DNA of 64,000 nt from Bryobacterales bacterium (GTDB lineage Bacteria; Acidobacteriota; Terriglobia; Bryobacterales; UBA6623), in contig OZ252099.1 of the NCBI GenBank assembly GCA_965248305.1, positions 1,009,981 through 1,073,980 of the forward strand, given 5' to 3'. Below, piece by piece: positions 1 through 40,925 of this stretch. The number at the start of each line of letters is the position of its first letter. The first letter of the stretch is position 1. A program made the translations under genes and the position numbers. The notes below the pieces were generated by a model. It was not told where the DNA came from. It was given only the letters and a program-made list of their open reading frames with translations, and ran no database searches.

Positions 1-201
1 TTCGCCTGAATTGCCCGGATTTCTTGACGAGCACGCGGATCTGATCCCGTCTCGCATCTCGGCCTGCTGGCGGAACGCGTTCGCATCTGCGCGAACCGCC
101 GGTCGGTCGAGCCCATTCCCTGGTTGGCACCGGCATTCATGGCCGTCCCACCGCCACGGTGCAGTTAGTGCCCCGGCGCGTGCCGAAGCGGGTAACCCGG
201 G

Positions 202-1977
202 TTATCGACCTAGCGCAACCGATTGTGTGATGCCTTCTCCTTGGAGGATCGTGACGGCTGTGTTCGCCACCACCTGCCCGAGCGCTGACTCGGAGCCGTC
301 CGGCCACTGAATCGACACCGAGGCAGATGGCTGCTGGCCGATTCCGAAATGAACCCGCAGATCGCTCTGCGAAATGTGATACCCACCGCTGCGGACCTCG
401 CCGATCTGGACACTGCCGCCGGATTCAACCTGGATGCGCGAGCCGATTGCCGAGCGTCCAGACGGTGCCCTTGCGTCGATTAGGATCGCGTTCCCAGTGG
501 GAGCGAACTGCTTTAGCAGCGACGGATGATCATGCATATTCACGGTCACGATCTCCAATGAGCCGTCGTTGTCCAAGTCCGCGACTGCAATCCCTCTCGA
601 GGAGTGAAACTCGTTGATCCCCGGGCCCGCCTCGGCACTCATGTCATGGAAGCGCCCGGGTTCGTAGTTCCAGTACACCAGCCGTTTCTGGCGGAACGTC
701 TCTCCAACCCCGGCCTTGTCCACACCCGGATACACGTGCCCGTTGGCGACGAATAGATCCTTCCGGCCATCGTGGTCGATATCAAGGAATGCCGTGCCCC
801 AGCCAAGGTACTGCGTGTTGACGGCGAGGCCCGTCGAAACGGTCTCATCCATGAACATTTGCGTGCCTTCGTTGAGATACAGGGTGTGGGTGTCGTTAGA
901 AAAGTTTGTCTTGAATATGTCTAGATCGCCGTCCAAGTCAAAGTCGGCCGCCGTGGTGCCCATGCCCGCCTGTTCCTGTCCGTCCATGTTGTACGCCGTT
1001 CCGGAGATGATGCCGATCTCTTCAAACGTGCCATCGCCCTTGTTGTGGAAGAACAGGCTTGCCGTCGAGTCGCACGTCACATACACATCGGTCCAGCCGT
1101 CGTTGTCGAAATCGGCCGTCAGCGGCGTGAAACCGTAGTAGAGCTTGTCGGTCTCCACGCCGGTCTCCACCGACACGTCCTGGAAGAGTCCGTCACCGTC
1201 ATTCTGGTACAGCGACATGGATTCTCCGGGCAGCCCGCGCGGACCGCACAGTACGGCGAGGCCCTTCCAGCGGCAGTCCGCTCCATCGCCTGGCTTGGGC
1301 GTTTTGGCGGGATCGAAGCGCAGGTAATTCGCCACGAAGAGGTCCAAGTCTCCGTCGCGGTCGAAGTCGAGGAACGCGCAACCGGTGCCCCAGCGCTGAC
1401 TGCTCTCGGTTAGGCCCCGCTGCGCGGTTTCGTCCCGGAACTTGCCCACACCGTCATTCCTGTACAGGCGGTTCTGCCCCCAATGCGGGATGAACAGATC
1501 CTCGAACCCGTCGTCATCGACATCGCCTACGCAGGCGCCTTGCGCCCATCCGGTGTACTGTATCCCCGCTTCCTCCGTAACATCGGCGAACTTCAATCCG
1601 CCCAGGTTCCGGTAGAGGTAATGCCGCGGCTCGGCGCCCTCCCGCTCGAATTGACCGCCGCTGACGAGCAGGATGTCTGGCAGGCCGTCCCGGTCGAAAT
1701 CGAAGATGGCCGTCCCTGTTCCCGTGGACTCGACGATGTAGTTCTTCGCTGTGGGGGATCCCGACACTGCGATGCCCAGCAAGCCTGCCGTCTTGGCGAT
1801 GTTCCGGTATTCGATGCGGGGCGGCGTGACGCCCTCGGGTAGGGGCCGTTTGGGCCGGGGGGCCGCACCGCTGGATGCCGCGCCTTGGCCGAATGCGACA
1901 CCTCCGGCGATGACCACGCCGCACGCGAGAGCCGGCAGGGCGGCGGCAAACCGGGAGCGGGGCGTTCGCACAGTCAT
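202..1977 (-). CDS. CRTAC1 / ASPIC-UnbV family secreted protein with FG-GAP (VCBS-type) repeats
   Basis: 591-aa ORF with an N-terminal hydrophobic signal-like segment (AALPALACGVVIAGG). It has repeated Ca-binding FDxDxDGxxD motifs (FDFDRDGLPDILLV, DVDDDGFEDLFI, LDFDRDGDLDLFVAN, ADFDNDGWTDVYV, ADFDLDGDLDIFKTN, LDIDHDGRKDLFVANG, ADLDNDGSLEIV). The C-terminal tail is UnbV/ASPIC-like (GSRIQV...GGYHISQSDLRVHFGIG). Confidence 0.85.
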   Translation of the reverse strand: MTVRTPRSRFAAALPALACGVVIAGGVAFGQGAASSGAAPRPKRPLPEGVTPPRIEYRNIAKTAGLLGIAVSGSPTAKNYIVESTGTGTAIFDFDRDGLPDILLVSGGQFEREGAEPRHYLYRNLGGLKFADVTEEAGIQYTGWAQGACVGDVDDDGFEDLFIPHWGQNRLYRNDGVGKFRDETAQRGLTESSQRWGTGCAFLDFDRDGDLDLFVANYLRFDPAKTPKPGDGADCRWKGLAVLCGPRGLPGESMSLYQNDGDGLFQDVSVETGVETDKLYYGFTPLTADFDNDGWTDVYVTCDSTASLFFHNKGDGTFEEIGIISGTAYNMDGQEQAGMGTTAADFDLDGDLDIFKTNFSNDTHTLYLNEGTQMFMDETVSTGLAVNTQYLGWGTAFLDIDHDGRKDLFVANGHVYPGVDKAGVGETFRQKRLVYWNYEPGRFHDMSAEAGPGINEFHSSRGIAVADLDNDGSLEIVTVNMHDHPSLLKQFAPTGNAILIDARAPSGRSAIGSRIQVESGGSVQIGEVRSGGYHISQSDLRVHFGIGQQPSASVSIQWPDGSESALGQVVANTAVTILQGEGITQSVALGR

Positions 1978-2295
1978 CTCAGAATATCGAGTTGCGGCGT
2001 TGGGCTCCTTGCGCGACCGCCACGGGCTAGGGCAATGCTGCTATGCCCCCAAGGGAATCGTAGCCTACCGGGCCGGGCGTGTCGAAATGTTCCGAGAGGT
2101 TCGGCCTCCGAGACCTTGCTGTCTTCCAGCGGAGCGGCGGCGATCGTGAGCGGCGCCCGAAGCATGTTGGCCTCCAGCCTGTGCCGAGAGTCCGAAGGGC
2201 CTCCAACCAGCCAACAGACAGGGTCTGACTTTGCAGAATTCATACTAATGAGGCCGAAATATGCACCTGTACGCATAGATCTGTAACATAAACAT

Positions 2296-2496
2296 ATGCG
2301 CACTACGCTAGACCTCCCCGAGGAGGTGCTAGGTGAGGCCCAACGGTTGTTGGGATTCAAATCAAAGACCGACACGGTGATCCTTGCGCTGCGAGAGTTG
2401 ATCCGGCGAGCAAGAATCGACGAGCTCCGAGACCTGCTGGGGCATGTCAATCTAGACATTGATGTTGACCGGTCCCGCCGAAGGCACCGCCTGTGA
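2296..2496 (+). CDS. vapB: Type II antitoxin, VapB family (DUF2191-like)
   Basis: 66-aa ORF starting MRTTLDLPEEVLGEAQRLLGFKSKTDTVILALRELIRR, the typical N-terminus of VapB/DUF2191 antitoxins. Its stop overlaps the GTG start of the downstream PIN gene (GTGA at 2493-2496). Confidence 0.8.
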   Translation: MRTTLDLPEEVLGEAQRLLGFKSKTDTVILALRELIRRARIDELRDLLGHVNLDIDVDRSRRRHRL

Positions 2497-2882
2497 TCTT
2501 TGTCGACACCTCGGTCTGGGTCGAGGCGCTTCGTGATCGCAGCTGCGAATCCTTTCGGCATTTGGACCAGCTTCTTGACAGCGATAACGTTGCCATGCCG
2601 ATCCCGGTGCGCGTTGAACTGCTCGGCGGAGTTTCGCGTGCACAGCGAGCCAGTTTGGCACGCGCCTTGTCCGGGCTACCGGTCTACTATCCGACAGACG
2701 CAACTTGGATCAGGATCGACGGGTGGGTCCAACTTGCGACTGAACAGGGTCAGCGGTTCGGCTTCGCCGACTTGCTTATCGCATCACTCGCCGCCCAGGC
2801 CGCGCTGCCGCTGTGGTCGCTTGATAGGGACTTCGGCCGCATGGCCGACCTTGGATTCATCGAGTTGCACCGACCAGGCTAG
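2493..2882 (+). CDS. vapC: PIN-domain ribonuclease toxin VapC
   Basis: 129-aa ORF with the PIN-type N-terminus MIFVDTSVWVEALR and later acidic positions (FADLLIA, SLDRDF). It is translationally coupled to the upstream antitoxin. Confidence 0.85.
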   Translation: MIFVDTSVWVEALRDRSCESFRHLDQLLDSDNVAMPIPVRVELLGGVSRAQRASLARALSGLPVYYPTDATWIRIDGWVQLATEQGQRFGFADLLIASLAAQAALPLWSLDRDFGRMADLGFIELHRPG

Positions 2883-3220
2883 CAGCGCCCCCGCCTCGTT
2901 CCGTCGCAGACCATTCGAGGCTGCAACAGGGCGCCGGGCGCAGTTTCCGCCGGCGAACAGCGAAGATTGCTCCGGCGCTGGAACCGGAACTGCTCCGGTT
3001 GGCGCCTGGTCTACGCGATCGATACAGCTGCGGGCAGTGGTCTCGAGCATTCCCAGACCGTGCTGATGGCCTGTGCCCGTAGCACTCCCCACAGCGGTAG
3101 AAACAGGGTCCAATCGGAGGGAACGCGCCGGAATTCCTGGCACAAGCACCTAAGGGCAGGCTCGCGAGTGGGTCTGAAAGCGCCAATTTCGTGTTTTTCC
3201 AAGTCGGTCAGAGATGCGGG

Positions 3221-4582
3221 TTAGGGGTCCTCGCCGACCTTCCGGCCCGCTGGGGGGTCGCGTTGCCGCGCTTGGTCGAGCACGATGGAGAGGGCTCTCG
3301 CGGTCTCGGCGTCAGCAGGGTTTCCGCGAAGAATTTCCTCTAGCTCCTCGATGCCCTCGTCCCAGCGTCCGAGTCGGCAGAGTACGAGTGCCAGATTCCG
3401 ACGGGCCACGGCGTTGAGCGGCTCGAATCGGAGCACTGCCCGGTACCTGTCGAGCGCTGCCGCGTATTTCCCTTCCGCTTCCAAGCGGACGGCTTCCCCG
3501 TGCAGGCGGGCTGTCTCGAGCTCATTCTCGCGGGCCTTGTCGCCGGACGCGATCATCTTCGCCAGGAGCTCCCGAAATCGGCGGGCCTCGTCGCGCCGGC
3601 CGGCTTTGTGCAGGGACCGAGTGAGGTTGTACACGACCGATTGATCGTCGGGCCGGAGTGCGTGTGCCTTGAGCAAATGGACCGCGGCTGCCCCGGAGTC
3701 GCCACGGCGCTGCAACTCCAGCGCCAGCTGGTAGTGAGCCGCCGGATCATCGGGAGCGAGTTCGACGGCCTTCTGAAACAGGGGAAATGCCTCGTCCTCC
3801 AGCAGCAGCCTCTTGCGGACCAAGCCCAGCGCTAGATAGGCAGCACCGATTTTTGGGTCCACTTCGATCGAATGTCGAAATTCCGCTGCGGCCTCCTCTA
3901 GCTGGTCGCGCTCGCTATGCAGCTTCCCGTTGAGGAAGTGCAGCCGGGCCCGCTTGCCGCGATCCGTCTCCAGGCTCAAGGCCTTCGCCATGTGTGCGGC
4001 TGCGCGTTCAAACTCCTGCTTTCCTGCGAGGATCAGGGCGATGTTGAGGTGGGCGTCTCCCAACTCAGGATTCAAGGAGATTGCCCGCTCGAAGACTTGC
4101 ACGGCTGCGTCCTGCTCTCCTAGGCGGGCGAAGGCAGCACCTGCGGCGGCGTGGACGCGCGCCCGCTCCGGGGCTAGCTCGATCGCGCGCAGCAGGGCTT
4201 CGACAGCTTCAGTGCGACGGGGAATCATAGACTGAGCCGTTCCGAGCAGGAGAAGGGCTTCAACGTCGCTCGGACGGACGTCCAAGATGCCATTGAGGAG
4301 CGTGATTGCTTGCTCTAGATCGCCTTGCTGGATCAGCCGTGCGGCCTCGGGCAGCTGCGATTCGGAAGCGGCCGGGATCTGCTGCGCCTCAAGGTCCGCT
4401 GCTGTCGTGCCCACTGCGATCATGACGGCAGCGGCAAGCACGCAAATGGCCGCCACCGCTGTAGACCGAAAGGGCCCTGGCTTGGCACGCCGGTGCGGGC
4501 TACGAGTTCCCGGTGAAACAAGCGCCCGGCCCAGCTTGTACCAGACGCCAGCTGCGGCCGCGAGGTTTGGGTCCCGTCTCAT
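3221..4582 (-). CDS. Tetratricopeptide (TPR) repeat protein with N-terminal membrane anchor
   Basis: 453-aa ORF with a hydrophobic segment (AVAAICVLAAAVMIAVG) followed by many 34-aa TPR-like units (AxxxLGxAxxxxGxxxEAxxxxxxAxxLxP patterns). Confidence 0.75.
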   Translation of the reverse strand: MRRDPNLAAAAGVWYKLGRALVSPGTRSPHRRAKPGPFRSTAVAAICVLAAAVMIAVGTTAADLEAQQIPAASESQLPEAARLIQQGDLEQAITLLNGILDVRPSDVEALLLLGTAQSMIPRRTEAVEALLRAIELAPERARVHAAAGAAFARLGEQDAAVQVFERAISLNPELGDAHLNIALILAGKQEFERAAAHMAKALSLETDRGKRARLHFLNGKLHSERDQLEEAAAEFRHSIEVDPKIGAAYLALGLVRKRLLLEDEAFPLFQKAVELAPDDPAAHYQLALELQRRGDSGAAAVHLLKAHALRPDDQSVVYNLTRSLHKAGRRDEARRFRELLAKMIASGDKARENELETARLHGEAVRLEAEGKYAAALDRYRAVLRFEPLNAVARRNLALVLCRLGRWDEGIEELEEILRGNPADAETARALSIVLDQARQRDPPAGRKVGEDP

Positions 4583-4699: not shown

Positions 4700-7600
4700 T
4701 CAGAATATTATCTTCAGCCCGAATTGGACCTGACGCATCGGATTGACCGTGTTGAAGACCCTCCCGATGGTGGGAGAAAGCACCGTGGAATCGGGAGCAC
4801 CGTAGTTCGAAAGGTTGTAGAGGTTGAAGAACTCGGAGCGAACTTCCACCCAGCGGCCGTCTCCCCATCCGAAACGCTTGAACAACGAGAAGTCGAAATA
4901 CGTGACGGTTTCGGAATGGACGAGCCCTCGTCCAGCATTGCCGAAGCTGCCGAACTCAGGTACCTCGAAGGCACCCGGATCGAACCAGCGCGCCGACGAG
5001 CGAGATCCCGCGTTCGGATCACCGACCAAGTTGGGCCGCATGTAGCTCCACCAAGCCACCGTGTTGCCGATGTTGGCCACGTCGCCGCCGACGACCATAT
5101 TGATCGGCTGGCCGCTGCGGACCTGGAGCAGGCTGTTCACATGCCAGTTGCCCAGCACCCAGGCGGCCGGGCCGCTGTTGAAGATCCCTTTGCCTTTGCC
5201 CGCAGGGATTTCCCAGACCGAGGAGACCGAGAGGAAGTTCGGAATGTTGTACCCGGACACCCCGGTATTCCGATCCAAATCGTAGAAATCCTGGACGTAA
5301 GAGCTTCCGCCCGGGCCATTCTCAGCGGTGAAGAAGCCGCTGGCGCCGTTGTCGATCGCCCGCGACCAAGTATAGGAAGCGAGGAACGACAGCCCGTTGT
5401 AGAAACGCCGCTCGGCCTTGAATTCAAGGCCGTGATAGTCCGCGACACCGCGGTCGTCTCCCCAGAACACCGTGGGCATGTGCGGCTGTGGTGTCCTAGC
5501 CCGGACTTCCTCCGCGGAGCCCGGTCCGGGCCTTGCCGTGTTAGCTAGGCCCGTGACCTGAAGGCGGCGACTAATGCTGCCCACATAACCTGCGGACACC
5601 ACTAGATTCTGGCTGACCTGCTGCTGGAGCTCGACGTTCCACTGGTGGCCCACCGGATTCTTGCTGTTGTGGTCGACGCACCAGCAGGTGTCCCCCCAAG
5701 GCTGCGGCCCCGGGAGCGGGCTGCCGAGCTTCGTGCGCAGCTCATCGATGAAGCGAACAGGTCCGCCGACTGCGTTAGTAGCCTCGAAGAAGCCGTCATT
5801 GGATGGCCAACCGCCGCTGCCTTGCCACGATTGGTTGACGCCGGTCAATTGATCGAACACGATACCGTAGCCAACTCGCAGGACCGTGGTCGGATTCATG
5901 CTCCACGCAAGTCCCAACCGGGGCTGCCAGTTATCCCAGACCGGAATCGGCCCGATGCTCGTGTGATCTGCCAGCCGGATCTTGTCCCCGAACGGCACGT
6001 CTTGGAGGCCGTCTCCGGGAATGCAGGGCGAGATGCCGACTTGGTTGCAGGGCTGCGGCATGGATTCTAGCCCGATCAAGAAACCACCAGACTCGACGTC
6101 GTAGTTCGTTTTAAACCGACCTGAATTGGATTCCACGTCCGGCCACATCAAATGGTCGAAACGCAGCCCGATATTGATTGTCAGGTTCGATTTCACCCTC
6201 CATTCATCCTGTACGTATGCCCCGAATGTCTGATAGCCGAAGAAGATGTCCGAGGGTAGCCCGCCTGACACTTGCGAGGGAACGCCGAGCAATGCTGAAG
6301 CCAAGGCGTCTCCCGTCGTCCCGACCTCAGCCGACCGCAGACCTTGTGTCGGAACCTCTGTGAAGTTGAAGCTGATCGATCCGCTGGACCCGGGAGTCAG
6401 CGTGTGGCGCAACGTTTGCACGCCGAACTTCAGCGTGTGGTTGCCACGAATCCAGCTCAGGTTGCCAGTGTAGTGGTACTGCTCGTAATGGAATTCGAGC
6501 GGCCCCTCCATGCGTCGCAGCGCTCCTATATCGCCGCCCGCGAAGCCGCCGCTCCCGATCGCGATACTGGGAATTGGTCGGACGCCTGCGATGGTGCCGA
6601 ATCCGGCTGCTAGCGCGGGGCCGTCTCCGACCGACTCGTCTGGCAGCGTTCCCTGCCGGTAGGGTTCCTTGGCGTACCCGAAGCTGTGATCCATGATCAG
6701 GGTCGGGGAGAAGCTATGGAACCATCCTCCACCGTAGTTGAAGAAGGGGAATTCACCGACTTCATTGATCAACTGGGTTGAGGGCGTGAGATCCGCGCCG
6801 TCAACCTTGCTATAGCGGCCCCAGGCCCGATCCAGTTCACTGAACTGGTGGTCGATGCGAACTTGGAAGTTGTTGGCGTCGTTGGTCGCCGCGTCACCGT
6901 TGATCACGTTGAACTGGGGATCGCCCGACAGGTTGGGTTGATCGTAATAGCCCCTCAAATAGGTCTGCATGGGCTGATTCAGGCTGCCTGATGGGATGAT
7001 GTTGTTCGGGAACTGCGTGCGAATCAACTCGCCACTGCTCGGATCCATCCGCGTGCTCAGGGGGTCGTAAATGTTGCGGCCGGTAGGCCAGCTGGAGAAG
7101 TCGCCGCCCAGTTGCGCATCTGTCGGCACGTAATACCGATTCGATCTCGGATTACTGTAGCGCCAGCCCTCGAACGCCGCGTGGAAGAATGTGTGATTCC
7201 TGACGATCGGGCCACCGACCGCAGCGCCGAATTGGTTCTGCCTGAATGCGGCCGGCTCTGCGTTGAATTCATCAGCGAAGGGATCCCGAGCGTTCAAGAC
7301 ATCGTTACGGACGAACTCCCACAGGGTTCCATGAAACTCATTCGTGCCGGTCTTGGAAATAACGTTGATGACGCCTCCGAGAACGCCACCGAACTCGGCC
7401 TTGTCGTTGTGGGACTGGACCTTGAACTCTTCGATGGCATCGATGATCGGTGGGATGACATACATGTTGCCGATGAAGTTGGTGTTGTTGAGCCCGTCCA
7501 GCAGGTGAATATTCATGCGGTTCCACTGCCCGTGAATGGACGGGTTCGAGAAGGACGCACCGGGCACGCCGACATTGGCGAGATCGTGGCTCCCGATGCC

Positions 7601-8128
7601 GCTGCTCTGGGCAGTGCTCACAGGAGTCGCGCCCGGAGTCAAGGTCAGTAACTGGGTGAAGTTCCGGCCATTCAAGGGCAAATCCTCGATGGCCTTCACA
7701 CCGATGACTGTGCCAAGCTCCGATGTGGACTGCTGCAGCTGCTCGGCCTGCGCCATCACCTCGATGGTTTCGGTGACACTGCCAACTTCTAGGGCGAGAT
7801 TCTGCGTGATGGTCTGGTTGACACCGACATTGAACGATGGCAGAAGGGCGATCTTGAAGCCTTGCTGCTCGGCCACGAGCGTGTAATTTCCGGGCTGAAC
7901 GTTGACAAACACGAAGAACCCGCTGGCGTTGGCCTGGTTGGTGATCTCGGTCCCAGTGCCTAGGTTCGACAGCGTGACTGAGGTTCCGGGAATGACGGCC
8001 CCCGTCGTATCGGTAATCGTGCCGTTGACTCCCCCGGTCGTGCTCTGTGCGAAAACCCACCACGCTGCCAGCAAACATGCCACGAGTAGCCTTGCCACCC
8101 GTCCCTGCGCGCACGAAATTTCTTGCAT
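4700..8128 (-). CDS. TonB-dependent outer-membrane receptor with N-terminal carboxypeptidase-regulatory-like domain
   Basis: 1142-aa ORF with a signal peptide (LLVACLLAAWWVFAQS). The CarboxypepD_reg-like domain is GTITDTTGAVIPGTSVTLSNLGTGTEITNQANASGFFVFVNVQPGNYTLVAEQQGF. A plug-like segment is present (DLPLNGRNFTQLLTLTPG), and the C-terminal beta-barrel ends in an aromatic residue (VQFGLKIIF). Confidence 0.85.
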   Translation of the reverse strand: MQEISCAQGRVARLLVACLLAAWWVFAQSTTGGVNGTITDTTGAVIPGTSVTLSNLGTGTEITNQANASGFFVFVNVQPGNYTLVAEQQGFKIALLPSFNVGVNQTITQNLALEVGSVTETIEVMAQAEQLQQSTSELGTVIGVKAIEDLPLNGRNFTQLLTLTPGATPVSTAQSSGIGSHDLANVGVPGASFSNPSIHGQWNRMNIHLLDGLNNTNFIGNMYVIPPIIDAIEEFKVQSHNDKAEFGGVLGGVINVISKTGTNEFHGTLWEFVRNDVLNARDPFADEFNAEPAAFRQNQFGAAVGGPIVRNHTFFHAAFEGWRYSNPRSNRYYVPTDAQLGGDFSSWPTGRNIYDPLSTRMDPSSGELIRTQFPNNIIPSGSLNQPMQTYLRGYYDQPNLSGDPQFNVINGDAATNDANNFQVRIDHQFSELDRAWGRYSKVDGADLTPSTQLINEVGEFPFFNYGGGWFHSFSPTLIMDHSFGYAKEPYRQGTLPDESVGDGPALAAGFGTIAGVRPIPSIAIGSGGFAGGDIGALRRMEGPLEFHYEQYHYTGNLSWIRGNHTLKFGVQTLRHTLTPGSSGSISFNFTEVPTQGLRSAEVGTTGDALASALLGVPSQVSGGLPSDIFFGYQTFGAYVQDEWRVKSNLTINIGLRFDHLMWPDVESNSGRFKTNYDVESGGFLIGLESMPQPCNQVGISPCIPGDGLQDVPFGDKIRLADHTSIGPIPVWDNWQPRLGLAWSMNPTTVLRVGYGIVFDQLTGVNQSWQGSGGWPSNDGFFEATNAVGGPVRFIDELRTKLGSPLPGPQPWGDTCWCVDHNSKNPVGHQWNVELQQQVSQNLVVSAGYVGSISRRLQVTGLANTARPGPGSAEEVRARTPQPHMPTVFWGDDRGVADYHGLEFKAERRFYNGLSFLASYTWSRAIDNGASGFFTAENGPGGSSYVQDFYDLDRNTGVSGYNIPNFLSVSSVWEIPAGKGKGIFNSGPAAWVLGNWHVNSLLQVRSGQPINMVVGGDVANIGNTVAWWSYMRPNLVGDPNAGSRSSARWFDPGAFEVPEFGSFGNAGRGLVHSETVTYFDFSLFKRFGWGDGRWVEVRSEFFNLYNLSNYGAPDSTVLSPTIGRVFNTVNPMRQVQFGLKIIF

Positions 8129-8368
8129 TCGTTACCCCTCCTCCCCGGGCGCACGATCTGCGACTTTTGCAGCAAGAGCTGAATGCCCAATAAGCGGATC
8201 CGCCCCACAAGCGGATTCGCCGGACCCGGGAAATAACTTGCTCAATGCTACACTAGTCGCGCCAAGGCCGCAATGCCGATCCGGGGTTAAGACCTGCCCG
8301 TCAGGGAAATACGCGTTGGCAATTGGCTTCTCCAAGGTGCTGCGGGGCGGCCCCGACATGCGTGATGA

Positions 8369-34672: not shown

Positions 34673-35611
34673 TTAGACGACGCTCAACAGCAGGATCGGA
34701 CGCGGCAGCGTCGTGGCCGCCGCCTTCAGCAGCCTGCGCGGCAGCGCCGCCAGCTCGTAGCGGCGATTGAAGCGGTACTGGAACTCGGCTAGGTAGCGCC
34801 CCGCGTAGTGCGGCGCGCAGGCATGGTAGGTGCCGTCCAGCGAGCGCTTCACGTTCCCCAGGATCGTGTTCGCCCAGACCAGGTCGGGCGTCTCGCAGCC
34901 CTGCTTGCCGCCGCCCGTCACGTGTGGCTTGTGCTCGCAGCCCGCTGCCTCCAGCCCCTTGAAGCAGGCCAGCCCGTCCGTGTTCACCGTGGTCCCGGGC
35001 TGGAGGTGCTGCGCGGCCCACCGCTCGACCTCGGCCGTGCGGAAGCCGTCGACCACGCTCAGCTTCAGCACCACCGGCTGGCCCTCCTCGCTGACCTGCA
35101 CGGCCGCCAGCATCGGCGTCTTGTTCGGCGAGCCCCGCCCGCGCTTGCCGCCGGGGTACTCGCCGCCCAGATAGGCGTCGTCCAGCTGCACGGTGCCCGC
35201 CAGCCGGTAGCGCTGGTCCCGCTCCCGCATGGCCTGCATGAGCTTGTGCTTGAGCAGCCAGGCGGTGTTGTCGTTGACGCCCAGCTTGCGCCCCAGTTCC
35301 AGGGCCGAGATGCCGCTCTTGGTCTGGGAGAGCAAGTAGATGGCAAGGAACCAAATGGTCAGCGGCAGCTTGGTGGCCTGGAAGACGGTGCCGGCGAGCA
35401 GGGAGAGCTGGCGCTTGCAGTGGTTGCACTGGAAGGTGGCCCGGCGGGTGGAGAGGCGGCAGAAGCGGGCGCCGCCGCAGCGGGGGCAGTTGAGGCCGTC
35501 GGGCCAGCGGGCGTCGAAGAGGGCCTGCTCGCACTGCGCCTCGGAGCCGTAGTCCTGGAGGAACTGGGCCAGGCTGAGGCCTGTTTGGAACTGGACTTTG
35601 TTCTTGGGCAT
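34673..35611 (-). CDS. IS1595-family transposase (N-terminal zinc ribbon plus ISXO2-like DDE domain)
   Basis: From the internal ATG: MPKNKVQFQTGLSLAQFLQDYGSEAQCEQALFDARWPDGLNCPRCGG...FQCNHCKRQLSLLAGTVFQATKLPLTIWFLAIYLLSQTK...VQLDDAYLGG...VNTDGLACF, which is the typical IS1595/ISXO2 layout. I could not define the element ends. Confidence 0.85.
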   Translation of the reverse strand: MPKNKVQFQTGLSLAQFLQDYGSEAQCEQALFDARWPDGLNCPRCGGARFCRLSTRRATFQCNHCKRQLSLLAGTVFQATKLPLTIWFLAIYLLSQTKSGISALELGRKLGVNDNTAWLLKHKLMQAMRERDQRYRLAGTVQLDDAYLGGEYPGGKRGRGSPNKTPMLAAVQVSEEGQPVVLKLSVVDGFRTAEVERWAAQHLQPGTTVNTDGLACFKGLEAAGCEHKPHVTGGGKQGCETPDLVWANTILGNVKRSLDGTYHACAPHYAGRYLAEFQYRFNRRYELAALPRRLLKAAATTLPRPILLLSVV

Positions 35612-35735
35612 CGCAGAGGGTTCTCTAGCCATGATTATCGCAATATATTCGCTCAAAGTCAATAGAATCAGCGATTTAATACGAACAAAACTCGCAATTC
35701 AAGGCTACGGAGACGCTGACCGCCGAGGGACGTAG

Positions 35736-36088: not shown

Positions 36089-36524
36089 GTAACCATTCAG
36101 GTTTCGGGGCGCTACAGTTAGGCTCTGCCGCAGAACCACGAGAGTAGCGCAGAGGCAGGCGAACCGGATTTCGTCGGCAACCGCAACGCTGAGGCAAAGG
36201 AGTTCCGGGGTAGCCGGAGGAGCAACCGGTCGGCGTCGGTGGAGCGGGTGGCTGGCGTCAGGCAGGGCTCGATGGGCAAGCAGAAGATCGGCTGAGCACT
36301 TGACATTGACTTGGCCTCGGCAACCTTGCCATCGTAGGATCGGGCGGTCAGCCCGGTCGTTGTGGGCAGGACGAAGTCCAGCAAGAAAGGACAGCCAGTC
36401 GGGGGGCGGCCCGCGTGCGCTCACTGTGAGCAACTCCAACGCGCACTCGACGCTGCACAGTCCGACATGCAGGCTGCGCAGGAACGGGAGGCCGAGCTGC
36501 AAGCCCAGCTGGCGAACCTGCAAC
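36089..36524 (+). mobile_element. 436-bp fragment (transposase-proximal end) of a second IS66-family copy, inverted relative to the full copy
   Basis: Starts GTAACCATTCAGGTTTCGGGGCGCTACAG and is collinear with the reverse complement of 39139-39574, with scattered substitutions and small indels. It includes the 5' UTR and the first ~55 codons of the transposase (ORF 36362-36559). Confidence 0.8.
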
Positions 36525-36592
36525 GTAAGCGTTCAGATGGCGAGGCGGAGGTCGGCTGAGCCGATGTTGGGGATGCCCGAGGAGGCGGGCAT

Positions 36593-37516
36593 CTAGCGGG
36601 AGCGCGCAGGGCGTGTTGGTCCGAGCAGGACCGTCTGCCAGTCCCGCTGCAGCGGATACACGAAGACCGCCTTGGGCGTCTTCGCTGGCGCCGTGCCCCA
36701 GGCACCGCGCGCCTGGGTCTGTCCCAGATAGTGCCAGTTCGAGGCCCGGTAGCAGGTTCCCTTGTGCTGGTCGCTGACATAGGTTTCGACCAGCACGGGC
36801 AGCACGCCATGGACGCGCTGCCAGTCCGCGGCCAGCTGGCGCAAGCTCAGCCCCAGGACCTTTGACGCCAGGCATGGCACGCGCACCCAGGGAAACAGCA
36901 GGAAACGGGCTTGCCGCACAACCCGCTCCAGCGGCCGGTGGGGCTGGTCCTGCCAGCCGATCCAGCGGTCCCGCACCGCCAGGTAGCGGGCGGCGAAGTC
37001 GTACAACAGGCAGCCCAGCAGGCGCCCCTGACGGTCTTCGAGGAAGTAGCGCAGGTGGGAGCCGATGGGCTGGCGATAGCCCAGTGGATGGTAGCGTGCG
37101 AGGAATTCGTTCCCCAGGGCGGCCTCATCGCGGCCGCTGACGAGCCGCAAGCGCAGCGGCTCGAGCTGTGGCAGGGGGCCGTCGAGCGGGGCTTGGGGCG
37201 CACTGCGCTCGCCCAGCGAGAGGGGCCCTTGGCGGCCCCGTCCGGGGCCTTGGCGGGCGGGCAGGGCCAGGAGCGAGAGCCGTTCGAGTTCCTCCAGCAG
37301 ACGCAGCGCCAGTTGGATGCGGTTGCTGCCACGAGGGGTCTGCCACCGCAGGTGCTCGCAGACGGTGTGGCCCAGTTCGGTGCGGCTCAGCAGGGGCAAG
37401 CTGGTGACGATCTCCTGGATGTCCGCAATCTGGCTCCGTCGCAGGCGGTGGCCGCAGAAGGCGGTCGAGGCCAGCCGCACGATGCGCGGGTCCAGCGCGG
37501 CGGCGGAACGGGCCAT
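36593..37516 (-). CDS. DUF4338-domain protein (DruA-like)
   Basis: 307-aa ORF with the N-terminal pattern LSRTELGHTVCEHLRWQTPRGSNRIQLALRLLEELERLSLLALP. The C-terminal pattern is FLARYHPLGYRQPIGSHLRYFL...RDRWIGW...RFLLFPWVRVPCLASKVLGL...DWQRVHGVLPVLVETYV...GTCYRASNWHYLGQTQARG. I recognise both as DUF4338, but this was not verified by HMM search. The ATG follows the transposase stop directly (TGAATG). Confidence 0.7.
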   Translation of the reverse strand: MARSAAALDPRIVRLASTAFCGHRLRRSQIADIQEIVTSLPLLSRTELGHTVCEHLRWQTPRGSNRIQLALRLLEELERLSLLALPARQGPGRGRQGPLSLGERSAPQAPLDGPLPQLEPLRLRLVSGRDEAALGNEFLARYHPLGYRQPIGSHLRYFLEDRQGRLLGCLLYDFAARYLAVRDRWIGWQDQPHRPLERVVRQARFLLFPWVRVPCLASKVLGLSLRQLAADWQRVHGVLPVLVETYVSDQHKGTCYRASNWHYLGQTQARGAWGTAPAKTPKAVFVYPLQRDWQTVLLGPTRPARSR

Positions 37517-39306
37517 TCAGGCCGCCTTGTCCAGCTCGGTGTCCCCGCTGCTGGCGCCAGACGGGATCCAGTCCACCGGGGCCTTGCTGAGTTGTTCCCG
37601 ACGCTGCTCGCTCAGGCGCCACGGCAGCCAGGGATCGAGCTGTTGCGGGGCCTTGTTGCCATGGCGGGCACAGGCCGCCAGCCAGTCCAGCATCCAGGTA
37701 TACGGGTTCAGGCCCGCCAGGCGCACGGTCGCGAGTACGCCGAACAGCAGACCCGCCGCTCGCGCACCGTCCGGCCCGCCCGAGCCGAAGCTGGTGTAGC
37801 GGGCGATGACCGGCCCCCGCAGAACCCGCTCCGACAAATTGTTGTCGAGCGGGATGCGCGGGTCCGCCACGAAGCGGCTCAGCGATTCCCGGTGACTCAG
37901 CAAGGCCCCCAAGGCCCGTCCTTGCGCATCCACACGGGCCAACTCGGCACCGTGCTGGCTGCGGCCTTGGCCCACCTGGTCGAGCAGAATCCAGTCGAGC
38001 TTGCGATCCCCGCCCTCTTCCCGGGCGCGCTCGAACAACTCTTCCACTCGCGCTTGCAACTGCTGCTGGAGCGCCTGGAACGCCCCGCTTTGCCGCTCCA
38101 GCGGTTGCTGCGGAGCCCACTGCTGGAGCCGCTGTCGGTTCAGCTGGAACAATGCGCCGATGCGCTCGACCCACTCCTGTGCCCACGCCTTGAGTTCCGG
38201 GTGACCGGTGCCGGCCCGCACGAAATTGCGGCGGATATGCACCCAGCAATGGGAGAGCACCACCAGGTTCGGAAACTGCTTGGCAAAGGCCTTGTACGTG
38301 CTGTAGCAGTCACACACCAGCACGATCAACCCGCCCTGGCCGACCAACGAATCGAGCAATTGCCGGGCGGAGTCCAGGCCCCGGGTCGGCAGGATCCGCA
38401 TGCGGACCGTGTCGCCGGCCAGACAGGCCCACAGCCAGAACTTCGGCTTGGGTCGCCCGCGGGGAGGCGGGTCCTTGTTGTCGTCCTCGCTCGGGGCCAG
38501 CCACTGCACTGGCCAGGAGGTCTCGTCGGCCTGGGCCACCGGCTGCTGCTGTGGATACTCTCCGATCGCCGCAGCCCCGTTGACAGCGTCGACTGCGGCA
38601 CGCGCAGCCCCAGTGCCGCCAGATCCCGGGCGACCGCCGCCTGCGGACGGAACAGCGCGTAGACCTGCACCAGACACCCGGCCCACACACTGGTGCCCAA
38701 CTGGCTGGTGCCCAGCCGGGGAGCCGGCGGGGCGCTCACCGGCCGGGCTGAGCAACAGTCGCAGTCCGGACCATAGCGCTGGCGCACCACCTTGCGCACC
38801 AGCGCGTTCCAGACCAGCTCGTACAACCAGCTGATCTTGTGCCCGCACGGCACGTAGGCGGTGCCGCAGTCCGGACAGCGGCGCTCCTGCTCGGGCACGT
38901 CCAGCCACTCGAACACCACGGGCAGGTCGGGCCGCTGCTCGCGCGGCGGGGTCGGCGAACCCGGTTCCCGCCCGCGCTTCCTGCGCGGCCGGACCGCCGG
39001 ATCCTTGCTCGCGGCCGGATCCGGCGCGGGCGTTTCCCCGGCCGCTGTCTCGGCGGCCGACGGGTCGGCAGCGACTGTCGCCGTGGCGGACGGGTCGTCC
39101 CCGCCCGCTGGCGTGGCCTCGCTCTTGCGTCCGAACAGCGACCGTTGCAGGTTCGCCAGCTGGGCTTGCAGCCCAGCCTCCCGTTCCTGCGCAGCCTGCA
39201 AGTCGGACTGTGCAGCGTCGAGTGCGCGTTGGAGTTGCTCGCAGCGAGCGCACGCGGGCTGCCCCCCGACTGGCTGTCCTTTCTTGCTGGACTTCGTCCT
39301 GCCCAT
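37517..39306 (-). pseudogene. IS66-family transposase, needs a -1 frame change near 38565-38572
   Basis: The N-terminal frame has MGRTKSS...coiled coil...CPDCGTAYVPCG (zinc finger). The C-terminal frame has ADETSWPVQ..., VCDCYSTYKAF, LSHCWVHIRRNF (IS66 CWAH.RR.F motif) and DNNLSERVLRGPVIAR. The total is 1790 nt (2 mod 3). Confidence 0.8.
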
Positions 39307-39817
39307 AACGACCGGGCTGACCGCCCGATCCTACGATGGCAAGGTTGCCGAGGCAAAGTCAAGTGCGCAGCCGATATTTTCTTGCTTGCCCATCGAGCCC
39401 TGCCCGACGCCATCCACCCGCTCCACCGACGCCGACCGGTTGCTCCTCCGGCTGCCCCGGAACTCCTTGCCTCAGCGTTGCGGTTGCCGACGAAATCCGG
39501 TTCGCCTGCCTCTGCGCTACTCTCGTGGTTCTGCGGCAGAGCCTAACTGTAGCGCCCCGAAACCTGAATGCTTACGCTCTCTGTACCAGTCCCTCGCTTC
39601 TATTGCTCTCGCATTCAACTCGTCTGTTGGATCAAACAGGCCGATCCAATAGCAACTATCCACGAAAATCCTATTCATTGCAATTCTTCGCGTTTCCTGC
39701 TTGATCGGACGGAGTCCAGTTGCTATTTGCCACGAGAGCCTTGACCTTAAATTCTTGAGAATGCCCCGCGAGGCCCAGAATCAAACCCTGACGTCGGACT
39801 ACGCGCTCGCTCAACGC

Positions 39818-40831
39818 TCAGACAGCGACTTGGGTGCTCGTCGCAGTCGCAGTCGACTCATCCTGCGACATGATTAGTTGCATGGCTGCTTCCCTAAGGG
39901 CTTCCGGGACGTCACGATCGGCTTTCGCGAGTAACAGGCACTCTACGGTCCTAACAGAACCACGACGAACAGCATCGACCAAGATCGTCTCGCCCCAGTG
40001 CCGATCCATAAAGTCGGTCGTCGCGCCACTGTTCAGTAATGCATTCGCGGTCTCGACATGACCCCGCACGGCCGCTTGCTGCAGTGCTGTCCAATGCAGC
40101 TTGCGGTCTTCGCAATCGATAGAGGACCCTCCCTGTAACAGCGCTTTAACAGTCCGAACGTTGTTCCGGATGGCAGCCTCCTGTAAAGCTGTTCGTCCAG
40201 ACCGCTTGTTCGCTATGTCAGCGTCGGCACCGTGATCTAGCAGGGTCACAACGACCTCCGCGTGATCTCGGATGGCAGCCTCGTGCAGGGCAGTATCGCC
40301 CCAGTCCTCATCCAAGGCGTTGACGTTAGCCGTTGCCACTAGCATTTGGACGACTTCTAAGTGACCATGGCGGGATGCCAGTTGGAGTGGCGGTTTGCCC
40401 CATGTCTGTTCCGTCAAGTTGGCATCAGCTCCAGCGTCCAAGAGCAACCTGACGATCGAGGCGTATCCCCGCTGTGAGGCCAACAGCAATGGTGTCGCGC
40501 CATTCGCGTCGACGGTGTTTACAGAAGCTTCATGCTTCAAGAGCACTTGCGCGACATCCTGGTGGCCTTCCCATGCGGCCAGGTGGAGGGCTGCCAAACC
40601 AGTAGGCCCACGAAGGTCGGGCAGAACGCTATCAAGTACGGCCTCAACGATTCTTGGATGCCCGTTACGAGCGGCGAGATGCAGTGGTGTCCAGCCGTCA
40701 TTGTCCGGGACGGAGTAATCGGCCCCCTTTCGGACTTGGGCCACGAATGTTGCAGCATCCCCCGCCGCCGCTGCCCGGAAAATGGAATCATGTGATTGAT
40801 TGATGCCGTCGGTATCGGTATGTTGCATCAT
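39818..40831 (-). CDS. Ankyrin-repeat protein (about nine repeats)
   Basis: 337-aa ORF with repeated 33-aa units of the form G.TPLH.AA..GH..vv..LL..GAd.n (DGWTPLHLAARNGHPRIVEAVL, TGLAALHLAAWEGHQDVAQVLLKHEASVN, NGATPLLLASQRGYASIVRLLLDAGADAN and others). Confidence 0.85.
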   Translation of the reverse strand: MMQHTDTDGINQSHDSIFRAAAAGDAATFVAQVRKGADYSVPDNDGWTPLHLAARNGHPRIVEAVLDSVLPDLRGPTGLAALHLAAWEGHQDVAQVLLKHEASVNTVDANGATPLLLASQRGYASIVRLLLDAGADANLTEQTWGKPPLQLASRHGHLEVVQMLVATANVNALDEDWGDTALHEAAIRDHAEVVVTLLDHGADADIANKRSGRTALQEAAIRNNVRTVKALLQGGSSIDCEDRKLHWTALQQAAVRGHVETANALLNSGATTDFMDRHWGETILVDAVRRGSVRTVECLLLAKADRDVPEALREAAMQLIMSQDESTATATSTQVAV

Positions 40832-40925
40832 TTCTCAACGCTTACATTATATGGATGGTTCGATACTCTGTTCGTTTTCCGCAATGCTGGTTTCCTTCTT
40901 GATTTCGCCGTCCTGTGTGTACACG

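Follow-up and report, generated by a model that had tools for sequence, protein, structure and literature searches.

A 64,000-nucleotide stretch of a Bryobacterales genome (contig OZ252099.1 of assembly GCA_965248305.1, positions 1,009,981 to 1,073,980; hereafter the window) contains a complete insertion sequence (IS) of the IS66 family (36525..39575, minus strand, 3051 bp) that holds, besides a transposase gene, an intact gene for a 307-aa protein of the DruA/DUF4338 family (36593..37516, minus strand; PF14236). Taken by itself, this element is a member of the IS66 family whose accessory gene is unconventional. Of more interest is a pattern that crosses IS families, in which the DruA-like module is a recurrent co-directional neighbour, or in-frame fusion, of at least eight families of DDE transposases. 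On balance, we lean towards a reading of this module, predicted to combine a winged-helix-like N-terminal unit with a GNAT-fold domain, as an acyltransferase-like partner of the transposase that would license or limit transposition by acyl-CoA-dependent modification.

Relatives of the window protein were collected by scanning one genome per GTDB species with a 7-sequence alignment, which gave 583 confirmed relatives, and the best 80 loci were fetched; most of the sequences surveyed are metagenome-assembled genomes (MAGs). Neighbouring genes were classed with Pfam and NCBIfam and then by tblastn using the transposases thus identified. A linked transposase is present at 60 of the 80 loci, always co-directional with the DruA-like gene and either beside it or fused to it in frame. 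The IS66 family accounts for 15 loci in which the transposase comes first, as in the window, and for five in which the DruA-like gene comes first, to which an exact look-up added five copies of one element. At 22 loci the partner is an IS4 transposase, joined to the DruA-like part in a single open reading frame (ORF) of 732-845 aa (mostly 745-793), and one decayed fusion of this kind was recognised by hand (L024). The DruA part is N-terminal in these IS4 fusions, the ORF is uninterrupted and the IS4 part scores 152-172 bits against an NCBIfam cutoff of 115. Adjacent transposases belong to ISKra4 (six loci), an ISAs1-like group (DDE_Tnp_1_assoc; five), IS1634 (two), IS701 (two) and PF21804 (one), and one further locus has a composite partner in an unclear arrangement. 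The pairing of DUF4338 with IS66, noted in the original prediction, is conserved in other copies of the window element, as described below, but is not specific to IS66.

The range of fusions was widened by an exhaustive profile search, which returned 12,038 clusters at 50% identity (E ≤ 1e-3; 2,104 at E ≤ 1e-30). The top 150 clusters include 26 of length 700 aa or more, and domain scans of ten of the longer ones gave, in addition to more DruA::IS4 fusions, two IS66::DruA fusions in the gene order of the window (P0171, of 810 aa, whose cluster has 25 members on IS-sized contigs; P0196, of 883 aa), a DruA::IS630-type (DDE_3) fusion (P0156) and a fusion of DruA to a Tn5-like DNA-binding domain (P0190). 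In public databases these fused proteins are named 'IS4 family transposase' (MDE0000879.1, RLA01632.1) or plain 'transposase'. A search of a plasmid collection gave two matches only, both on Thiodictyon plasmids. The Thiodictyon protein WP_216644545.1 (L088, 3905-5239; NZ_CP020371.1, 261027-262361) carries the C-terminal half of DruA at its N-terminus, a fusion hidden by its annotation as an 'ISAs1 family transposase'. Because in-frame fusions join the module to transposases of three unrelated DDE groups (IS4, IS66 and IS630), at either terminus, we infer a physical partnership with the transposase, in which the DruA-like protein would serve as an accessory subunit and not as cargo.

That the transposase and the DruA-like part move together is apparent from the comparison of copies, in which terminal repeats and target duplications enclose both of them in four architectures. 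IS66 elements with the transposase first are flanked by 8-bp duplications both in the window type (L009, L010) and in a second type of 2420 bp (L061, L062), and IS66 elements with the DruA-like gene first (L001-L003, 2988 bp) have GTAACC/GTAAGC repeats and 8-bp duplications at three sites. The ISKra4 type (about 2.67 kb, including L064) occurs at least seven times in a single 10-Mb genome, in copies that are 99.8-99.96% identical; six of these loci were fetched, one of them holding two copies, and 9-bp duplications are evident for six. The DruA::IS4 fusion element (2507 bp) has CAATGGCATTAAC repeats and 10-bp duplications. The L001 element, on a 5.3-Mb MAG contig, splits secA (3029-3868 and 6766-8187) and is flanked by the 8-bp duplication TGCTGAGC; either the genome has a second secA or the insertion is unfixed in the population.

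At the window, the order is left inverted repeat, transposase, DruA-like gene, right inverted repeat. The left repeat (GTAAGCATTCAGGTTTCGGGGCG; 39553..39575, minus strand) and the right repeat (inward GTAAGCGTTCAGATGGCGAGGCG; 36525..36547, plus strand), both delimited by sequence reading, pattern search and copy comparison, are identical at about 17 of 23 positions, the termini reading GTAAGCGTTCAG from 36525 on the plus strand and GTAAGCATTCAG from 39575 on the minus strand. A 12-nt core, GTAAGCRTTCAG, occurs with at most one mismatch at 4 sites in the window, as against 0.25 expected, and none of 100 shuffles reached 4. Terminal repeats of the GTAAGC type are also kept in L008, L009, L010 and L001-L004. 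Full-length copies with the same ends (1-3051) were found in L008 (91.6% nucleotide identity), L009 (78.7%) and L010, the range being 79-92%; L008 and L010 derive from other Bryobacterales MAGs and L009 from a contig binned as Chloroflexota. Perfect 8-bp target duplications flank the copies in L009 (AAACAGGT) and L010 (CACGCAGC), and the transposase is intact in L008 and L010. The DruA-like gene thus lies inside the inverted repeats and is mobile with the IS66 element. In L010 the DruA-like gene is itself interrupted by a group II intron on the opposite strand (5714-7721), with reverse transcriptase and maturase domains.

The window copy has been damaged in two respects. Its transposase gene (37517..39306, minus strand), which encodes the CPDCG zinc finger and the HCWVHIRRNF motif, is a pseudogene whose halves match PF03050 (E 1.9e-28) and PF13007 (E 2e-7) in Pfam and, in the NCBIfam IS66 model NF033517 (cutoff 180 bits), score 152 and 38 bits, as against 202 for the intact orthologue in L008 (3177-5000, 607 aa). 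Alignment with the intact L007 and L008 shows that 34 bp between GCGGCG repeats have been deleted, with the junction at ~38567..38573 (minus strand); the reading frame is shifted there, and this copy has lost the ability to make a transposase of its own. A programmed -1 frameshift was considered and rejected: the ORF is continuous in L007, L008 and L010, and the window differs from them by the 34-bp deletion. The second respect concerns the surroundings of the element. Another copy of this IS is represented by an inverted fragment (36089..36524, plus strand; the first 437 bp, 94% identical to positions 1-433), which opens with GTAACCATTCAG (GTAACC), holds transposase codons 1-54 and ends exactly at the right repeat of the full copy. 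No 8-bp target duplication is present at the window copy, the flanks being CCTGCAAC and GCTCTCTG. The full copy, lacking a target duplication and abutting an inverted fragment of a sibling, has therefore been rearranged; recombination between two copies is the simplest, if unproven, account of the arrangement, which recurs in L007 from a related MAG. Plain insertion of the IS into a sibling copy was rejected as the whole story, since the two flanks do not match.

A rearranged copy with a dead transposase might raise the suspicion that the DruA-like gene was captured by accident, or is an annotation artefact, in this one copy. That reading is refuted: full-length copies in other genomes share the gene, the ends and the target duplications, and 583 confirmed relatives and 12,038 clusters stand against a single event. 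In most of its particulars the original prediction withstood examination, including two genes enclosed by GTAAGC-type termini, an IS66-type transposase with its zinc-finger and HCWVHIRRNF motifs, an intact DUF4338 ORF of 307 aa that starts directly after the transposase stop, and the absence of TnpA and TnpB. None of the three findings that would have refuted it arose: the DUF4338 profile match is strong, and other copies retain both the DruA-like gene and the GTAAGC termini. It needs correction at two points, namely the far end of the element, which was given as 39574 and lies at 39575, and the proposed -1 frame correction near 38565-38572, which is in fact the deletion described above.

No ORF for TnpA or TnpB appears in the ORF listing of the element, including the 270 bp upstream of the transposase. 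The element is therefore assigned to the transposase-only (ISBst12-like) type, with a DruA-like gene added. This gene matches the PF14236 DruA family at residues 105-272 (E 6e-27, 95 bits against a gathering cutoff of 27). The junction between the two genes reads GCC TGA ATG GCC (37514-37519, minus strand), the transposase stop and the DruA-like start being consecutive and in the same frame, and an identical TGA-ATG junction (4998-5003) follows the intact transposase of L008. To judge from these adjacent in-frame codons, the DruA-like gene is expressed from the transposase transcription unit. Since one in-frame stop codon is all that intervenes, read-through of the UGA could yield a transposase-DruA fusion protein; a single stop separates the genes here, where the lineages of P0171 and P0196 have an in-frame IS66::DruA fusion.

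Between copies, the ratio of nonsynonymous to synonymous substitution rates (dN/dS) of the DruA-like gene is 0.25-0.32, a value that shows it to be under purifying selection. The motifs LSRtELa.TiCEhL.W.tP.G, RYHYLGY..P.G..LRYF and RD.WIGW are common to the DruA-like domains of every partner, as are RFL.FPWV.V.NLAS and PVLlETFVD...GTCYRAANW..lG.T.GR. The terminal repeats of the partner elements are mutually unrelated (GTAAGC..., CAATGGC..., GGGTGTGGC...). Because the motifs are constant while the repeats are unrelated, the N-terminal domain probably does not recognise IS-specific ends, and the conservation of the DruA-like surface irrespective of partner suggests a common target, which may be the backbone or lysines of the transposase, a nucleoid or repair factor of the host, or the structure of DNA.

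An AlphaFold2 model of the window protein, built on 37 homologues, has a mean predicted local distance difference test score (pLDDT) of 87.4. Residues ~27-79 are modelled as an N-terminal helix-helix-hairpin-helix unit, followed by a poorly ordered linker; we read its secondary structure, independently of any fold match, as a probable winged-helix type. Residues 122-300 form an alpha/beta domain for which Foldseek reported 86 matches in the PDB at E ≤ 1e-3; the 50 matches listed are all GNAT-type acetyltransferases, including SpeG, Naa60 and RimL-type enzymes (best E 2e-5; target-normalised TM-scores 0.37-0.66). This domain is therefore confidently predicted to adopt a GNAT fold, in line with a published comment (PMC10853773) that assigns DUF4338 to the GNAT domains; no solved structure was found for any member of the DruA/DUF4338 family. 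Conserved residues E244 and Y256 occupy positions that often hold the catalytic residues of GNAT enzymes and may have a similar, putative, role.

Taken together with the fusions, these features suggest a mechanism in outline. The DruA-like protein would most likely be an acyl-CoA-dependent acyltransferase, brought by its winged-helix domain to the transposition complex or to DNA, where it would act on a target independent of the IS family (the transposase itself, a nucleoid or repair protein of the host, or DNA) and, by modifying it, license or limit transposition. We know of no acyltransferase-type transposition factor. Among the three roles first proposed for the gene, transposition control is the one that fits the in-frame fusions best.

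DNA as the target defines a separate possibility, in which the GNAT-like domain acylates bases in the manner of phage Mu Mom, guided by the winged helix, marks the element or the genome in this way and thereby regulates transposase binding or blocks restriction. Regulation of transposase binding by DNA modification has a precedent in the Dam methylation of IS10 and IS50, and on such a view DruA would be the type I counterpart of DruM, the methylase of Druantia type II. Four DruA-like proteins gave Pfam matches to the Mom family PF25680 (E 8.8e-4 to 9.6e-3), the sole other family reported, and hhalign aligns 90 columns with the Mom profile in the correct topological order, including a shared N-[LS]-[AE]-S loop and an E-[TS]-F-x-D...G-x-x-Y-x-A-x-N-[WF]-x-x-G motif; the modelled N-terminal domain is of a DNA-binding type, as this possibility requires. 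However, the Pfam scores (16-19 bits) all fall below the gathering cutoff of 27.1, the hhalign probability is 6.8% (E 0.005), and the top Foldseek matches are ordinary GNATs of proteins and small molecules, such as SpeG and Naa60. A relationship to the Mom family was accordingly set aside, the profile test being too weak for the claim, and a DNA modification of the Mom type is regarded as improbable.

A GNAT fold would also be expected of an addiction module in which a GNAT toxin (like TacT, AtaT or KacT), fused to an antitoxin-like DNA-binding domain, stabilises the IS, and toxin-antitoxin pairs, GNAT types included, are integral to Tn3-family transposons. We consider this highly unlikely for the DruA-like protein, which is twice the size of GNAT toxins, has no separate antitoxin ORF beside it inside the element and gives no match to the TacT or AtaT families in Pfam or NCBIfam; its fusion to transposases and its presence in at least seven copies per genome are, moreover, hard to reconcile with such a toxin. 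The Tn3-family modules are likewise non-transposase genes within a transposition module, some of their toxins having a GNAT fold, but they are two-gene systems beside a resolvase, whereas the DruA-like protein is a single polypeptide, without an antitoxin and with transposase fusions.

Another alternative takes its cue from the name of the family. The DruA-like gene may be cargo that acts at the level of the host, with a Druantia-related role in defence or counter-defence that either benefits the host or shields the element in horizontal transfer, apart from the chemistry of transposition. The Pfam family bears the DruA name, some IS-linked members give partial matches to the PADLOC DruA models (407 and 675 positions), the best being that of L064 (E 1e-8 over ~85 residues), passenger genes have been described in ISs (PMC3942029) and solo copies of the gene exist. 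Against this, neither the window protein nor that of L001 matches a PADLOC DruA model at E ≤ 0.01, DruB-E genes are absent from the window and from those loci for which gene calls were listed, and the window has no ORF of DruE size (at least 1200 aa), the largest, 28 kb away, being of 1142 aa. Independent cargo would not be expected to be fused in frame, at either end, to transposases of three unrelated families, and these elements of 2.4-3.1 kb hold no other variable cargo. We therefore judge a cargo role unlikely. The window protein is a member of the Pfam family and is not part of a Druantia system; the domain had at first been called defence-associated, a label that derives from the name of the Pfam family.

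The DruA of Druantia type I (Doron et al. 2018) belongs to the same Pfam family and shares the core RYHxLGY...LRYF...GTCYRAANW. The window protein differs from it in its length of ~300 aa, in having no druB-E neighbours and in residing in a transposon instead of a defence operon. The YprA/Druantia preprint contains nothing on DruA itself. Under the proposal that the DruA-like protein is a partner of the transposase, the Druantia DruA would be a relative either recruited from a transposon module or sharing ancestry with one.

An approximate, midpoint-rooted neighbour-joining tree of 71 distinct domains bears on this history. The window clade (IS66, transposase first) lies within a large IS4-fused clade, beside the IS66 elements with the DruA-like gene first. 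A further clade linked to IS66, in which both gene orders occur, is placed elsewhere, surrounded by domains whose partners are IS701, IS1634 and ISKra4. The occurrence of two separate IS66-linked clades, one of them inside the IS4-fused clade, suggests repeated exchange of the module between IS families, and the tree thus indicates that partners have probably been switched repeatedly. This leads to a broader and more tentative proposition, to which we would give somewhat less than even chances, that DUF4338 is primarily not a defence domain and instead acts as a widespread cofactor domain for DDE transposases of any of these families, an acyltransferase-like subunit by which transposition would be coupled to acyl-CoA-dependent modification of protein or DNA, having been exchanged repeatedly among IS4, IS66, IS630, ISKra4, IS701, IS1634, ISAs1-like and PF21804 elements, and that the DruA of Druantia type I was drawn from this pool.

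Several points weigh against the view of the DruA-like protein as an acyltransferase-like partner of the transposase. Tight linkage and fusion would also secure the co-expression of a selfish cargo gene, and the substrate and catalysis of the DruA-like domain stay putative. At the position of the acyl-CoA loop the sequence reads V-x-V-x-N-L-A-S in place of the canonical R/Q-x-x-G-x-G/A, and the domain could consequently be a non-catalytic scaffold or a ligand sensor. No transposase was detected at 20 of the 80 loci by a detection that was limited and non-exhaustive, and hand inspection of some of these loci showed a few truly solo genes beside housekeeping genes, which indicates that the DruA-like protein can persist alone. 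The 80 loci are those closest to the query protein and not a random sample of the family, and the tree was a quick one.

Solo DruA-like genes of this kind are found in the Syntrophobacterales MAGs of L054, L057 and L072 (~5000-5950), where they immediately precede tsaD and the rRNA adenine dimethylase gene ksgA, with no transposase nearby; they could be domesticated copies. In L047, a 3.3-kb contig on which no transposase was detected, two DruA-family paralogues that are 27% identical stand in tandem (223-1116 and 1380-2735). In L082 (1378-4472) the gene that comes after the DruA-like one encodes, instead of a DDE transposase, a large serine recombinase with Resolvase, Recombinase and zinc-ribbon domains.

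Among known systems, one of the closest is the ISBst12-like subgroup of IS66, which likewise has an IS66-type DDE transposase with a leucine zipper and CxxC zinc finger, GTAAGC ends and 8-bp duplications, and which also lacks TnpA and TnpB. To this plan the element type described here adds a conserved gene for a winged helix-turn-helix-GNAT protein inside the repeats, after or before the transposase according to lineage and in some cases fused to its C-terminus. In being a co-transcribed second gene within the terminal repeats that is conserved between copies, the DruA-like gene resembles IS21 IstB, Tn7 TnsC, IS66 TnpA/TnpB and IS91 ORF121. Those accessory proteins are, however, ATPases or small proteins, each confined to a single IS family, whereas the DruA-like protein has a GNAT fold, accompanies at least eight unrelated DDE families and is often fused to the transposase. 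Mom, for its part, shares with the DruA-like protein a weak resemblance in the CoA-loop and motif-B regions and a location in mobile elements, but it falls below the family thresholds, has no N-terminal winged helix and is unlinked to the Mu transposase gene. The original prediction knew of no description of a transposon with a defence-associated domain as its only accessory gene, and a full-text search of the literature (DUF4338, PF14236, DruA with IS66, and accessory or passenger genes of IS66 and ISKra4), which did not cover ISfinder, found no description of the association. Four ISKra4 elements have been reported to carry unidentified extra genes (PMC3942029).

The surroundings of the window element, as given by the ORF listing, comprise an IS1595 transposase, the fragment of the second IS copy, a truncated small ORF and an ankyrin protein. 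The gene for the IS1595-family (ISXO2-like) transposase (34673-35662, minus strand; PF12762, E 7e-36, plus a zinc ribbon) lies ~400 bp to the left of the partial IS copy, and the region is a cluster of insertion sequences. The small ORF (39576-39678, minus strand; MNRIFVDSCYWIGLFDPTDELNARAIEARDWYRE...) is truncated by the left end of the IS and resembles, by eye, the N-terminus of a PIN-domain toxin; its 53-aa fragment has no Pfam match. To the right of the IS lies a gene for a 337-aa ankyrin-repeat protein (39818-40831, minus strand), a type that is unusual in bacteria. Three bases upstream of its ATG, the sequence GTAAGCGTTGAG (40834-40845, minus strand) agrees with the IS end in all but one of its 12 positions. 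This site was rejected as a fourth IS end, the similarity ceasing after 12 nt, and is probably due to chance.

As matters stand, the 12,038 clusters of this family are filed as 'Druantia DruA', as 'DUF4338' or, if fused, as 'IS4 family transposase', and predictors of defence systems and annotators of ISs alike will misread DruA-like genes. By the 'Rosetta stone' argument, association with at least eight transposase families, coupled with in-frame fusion to three of them (IS4, IS66 and IS630), points strongly to a direct role in transposition. It also brings the function of DruA in Druantia type I within reach of experiment, and Druantia may be another instance of a defence system that borrowed a component of transposons. 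Recently active, multi-copy elements such as those of the L064 type, with at least seven copies, and of the L001 type provide natural experimental material. If the broader proposition on DUF4338 is true, the DruA-like module would define a class of transposition regulators that is new, and the function of DruA would become accessible for the first time.

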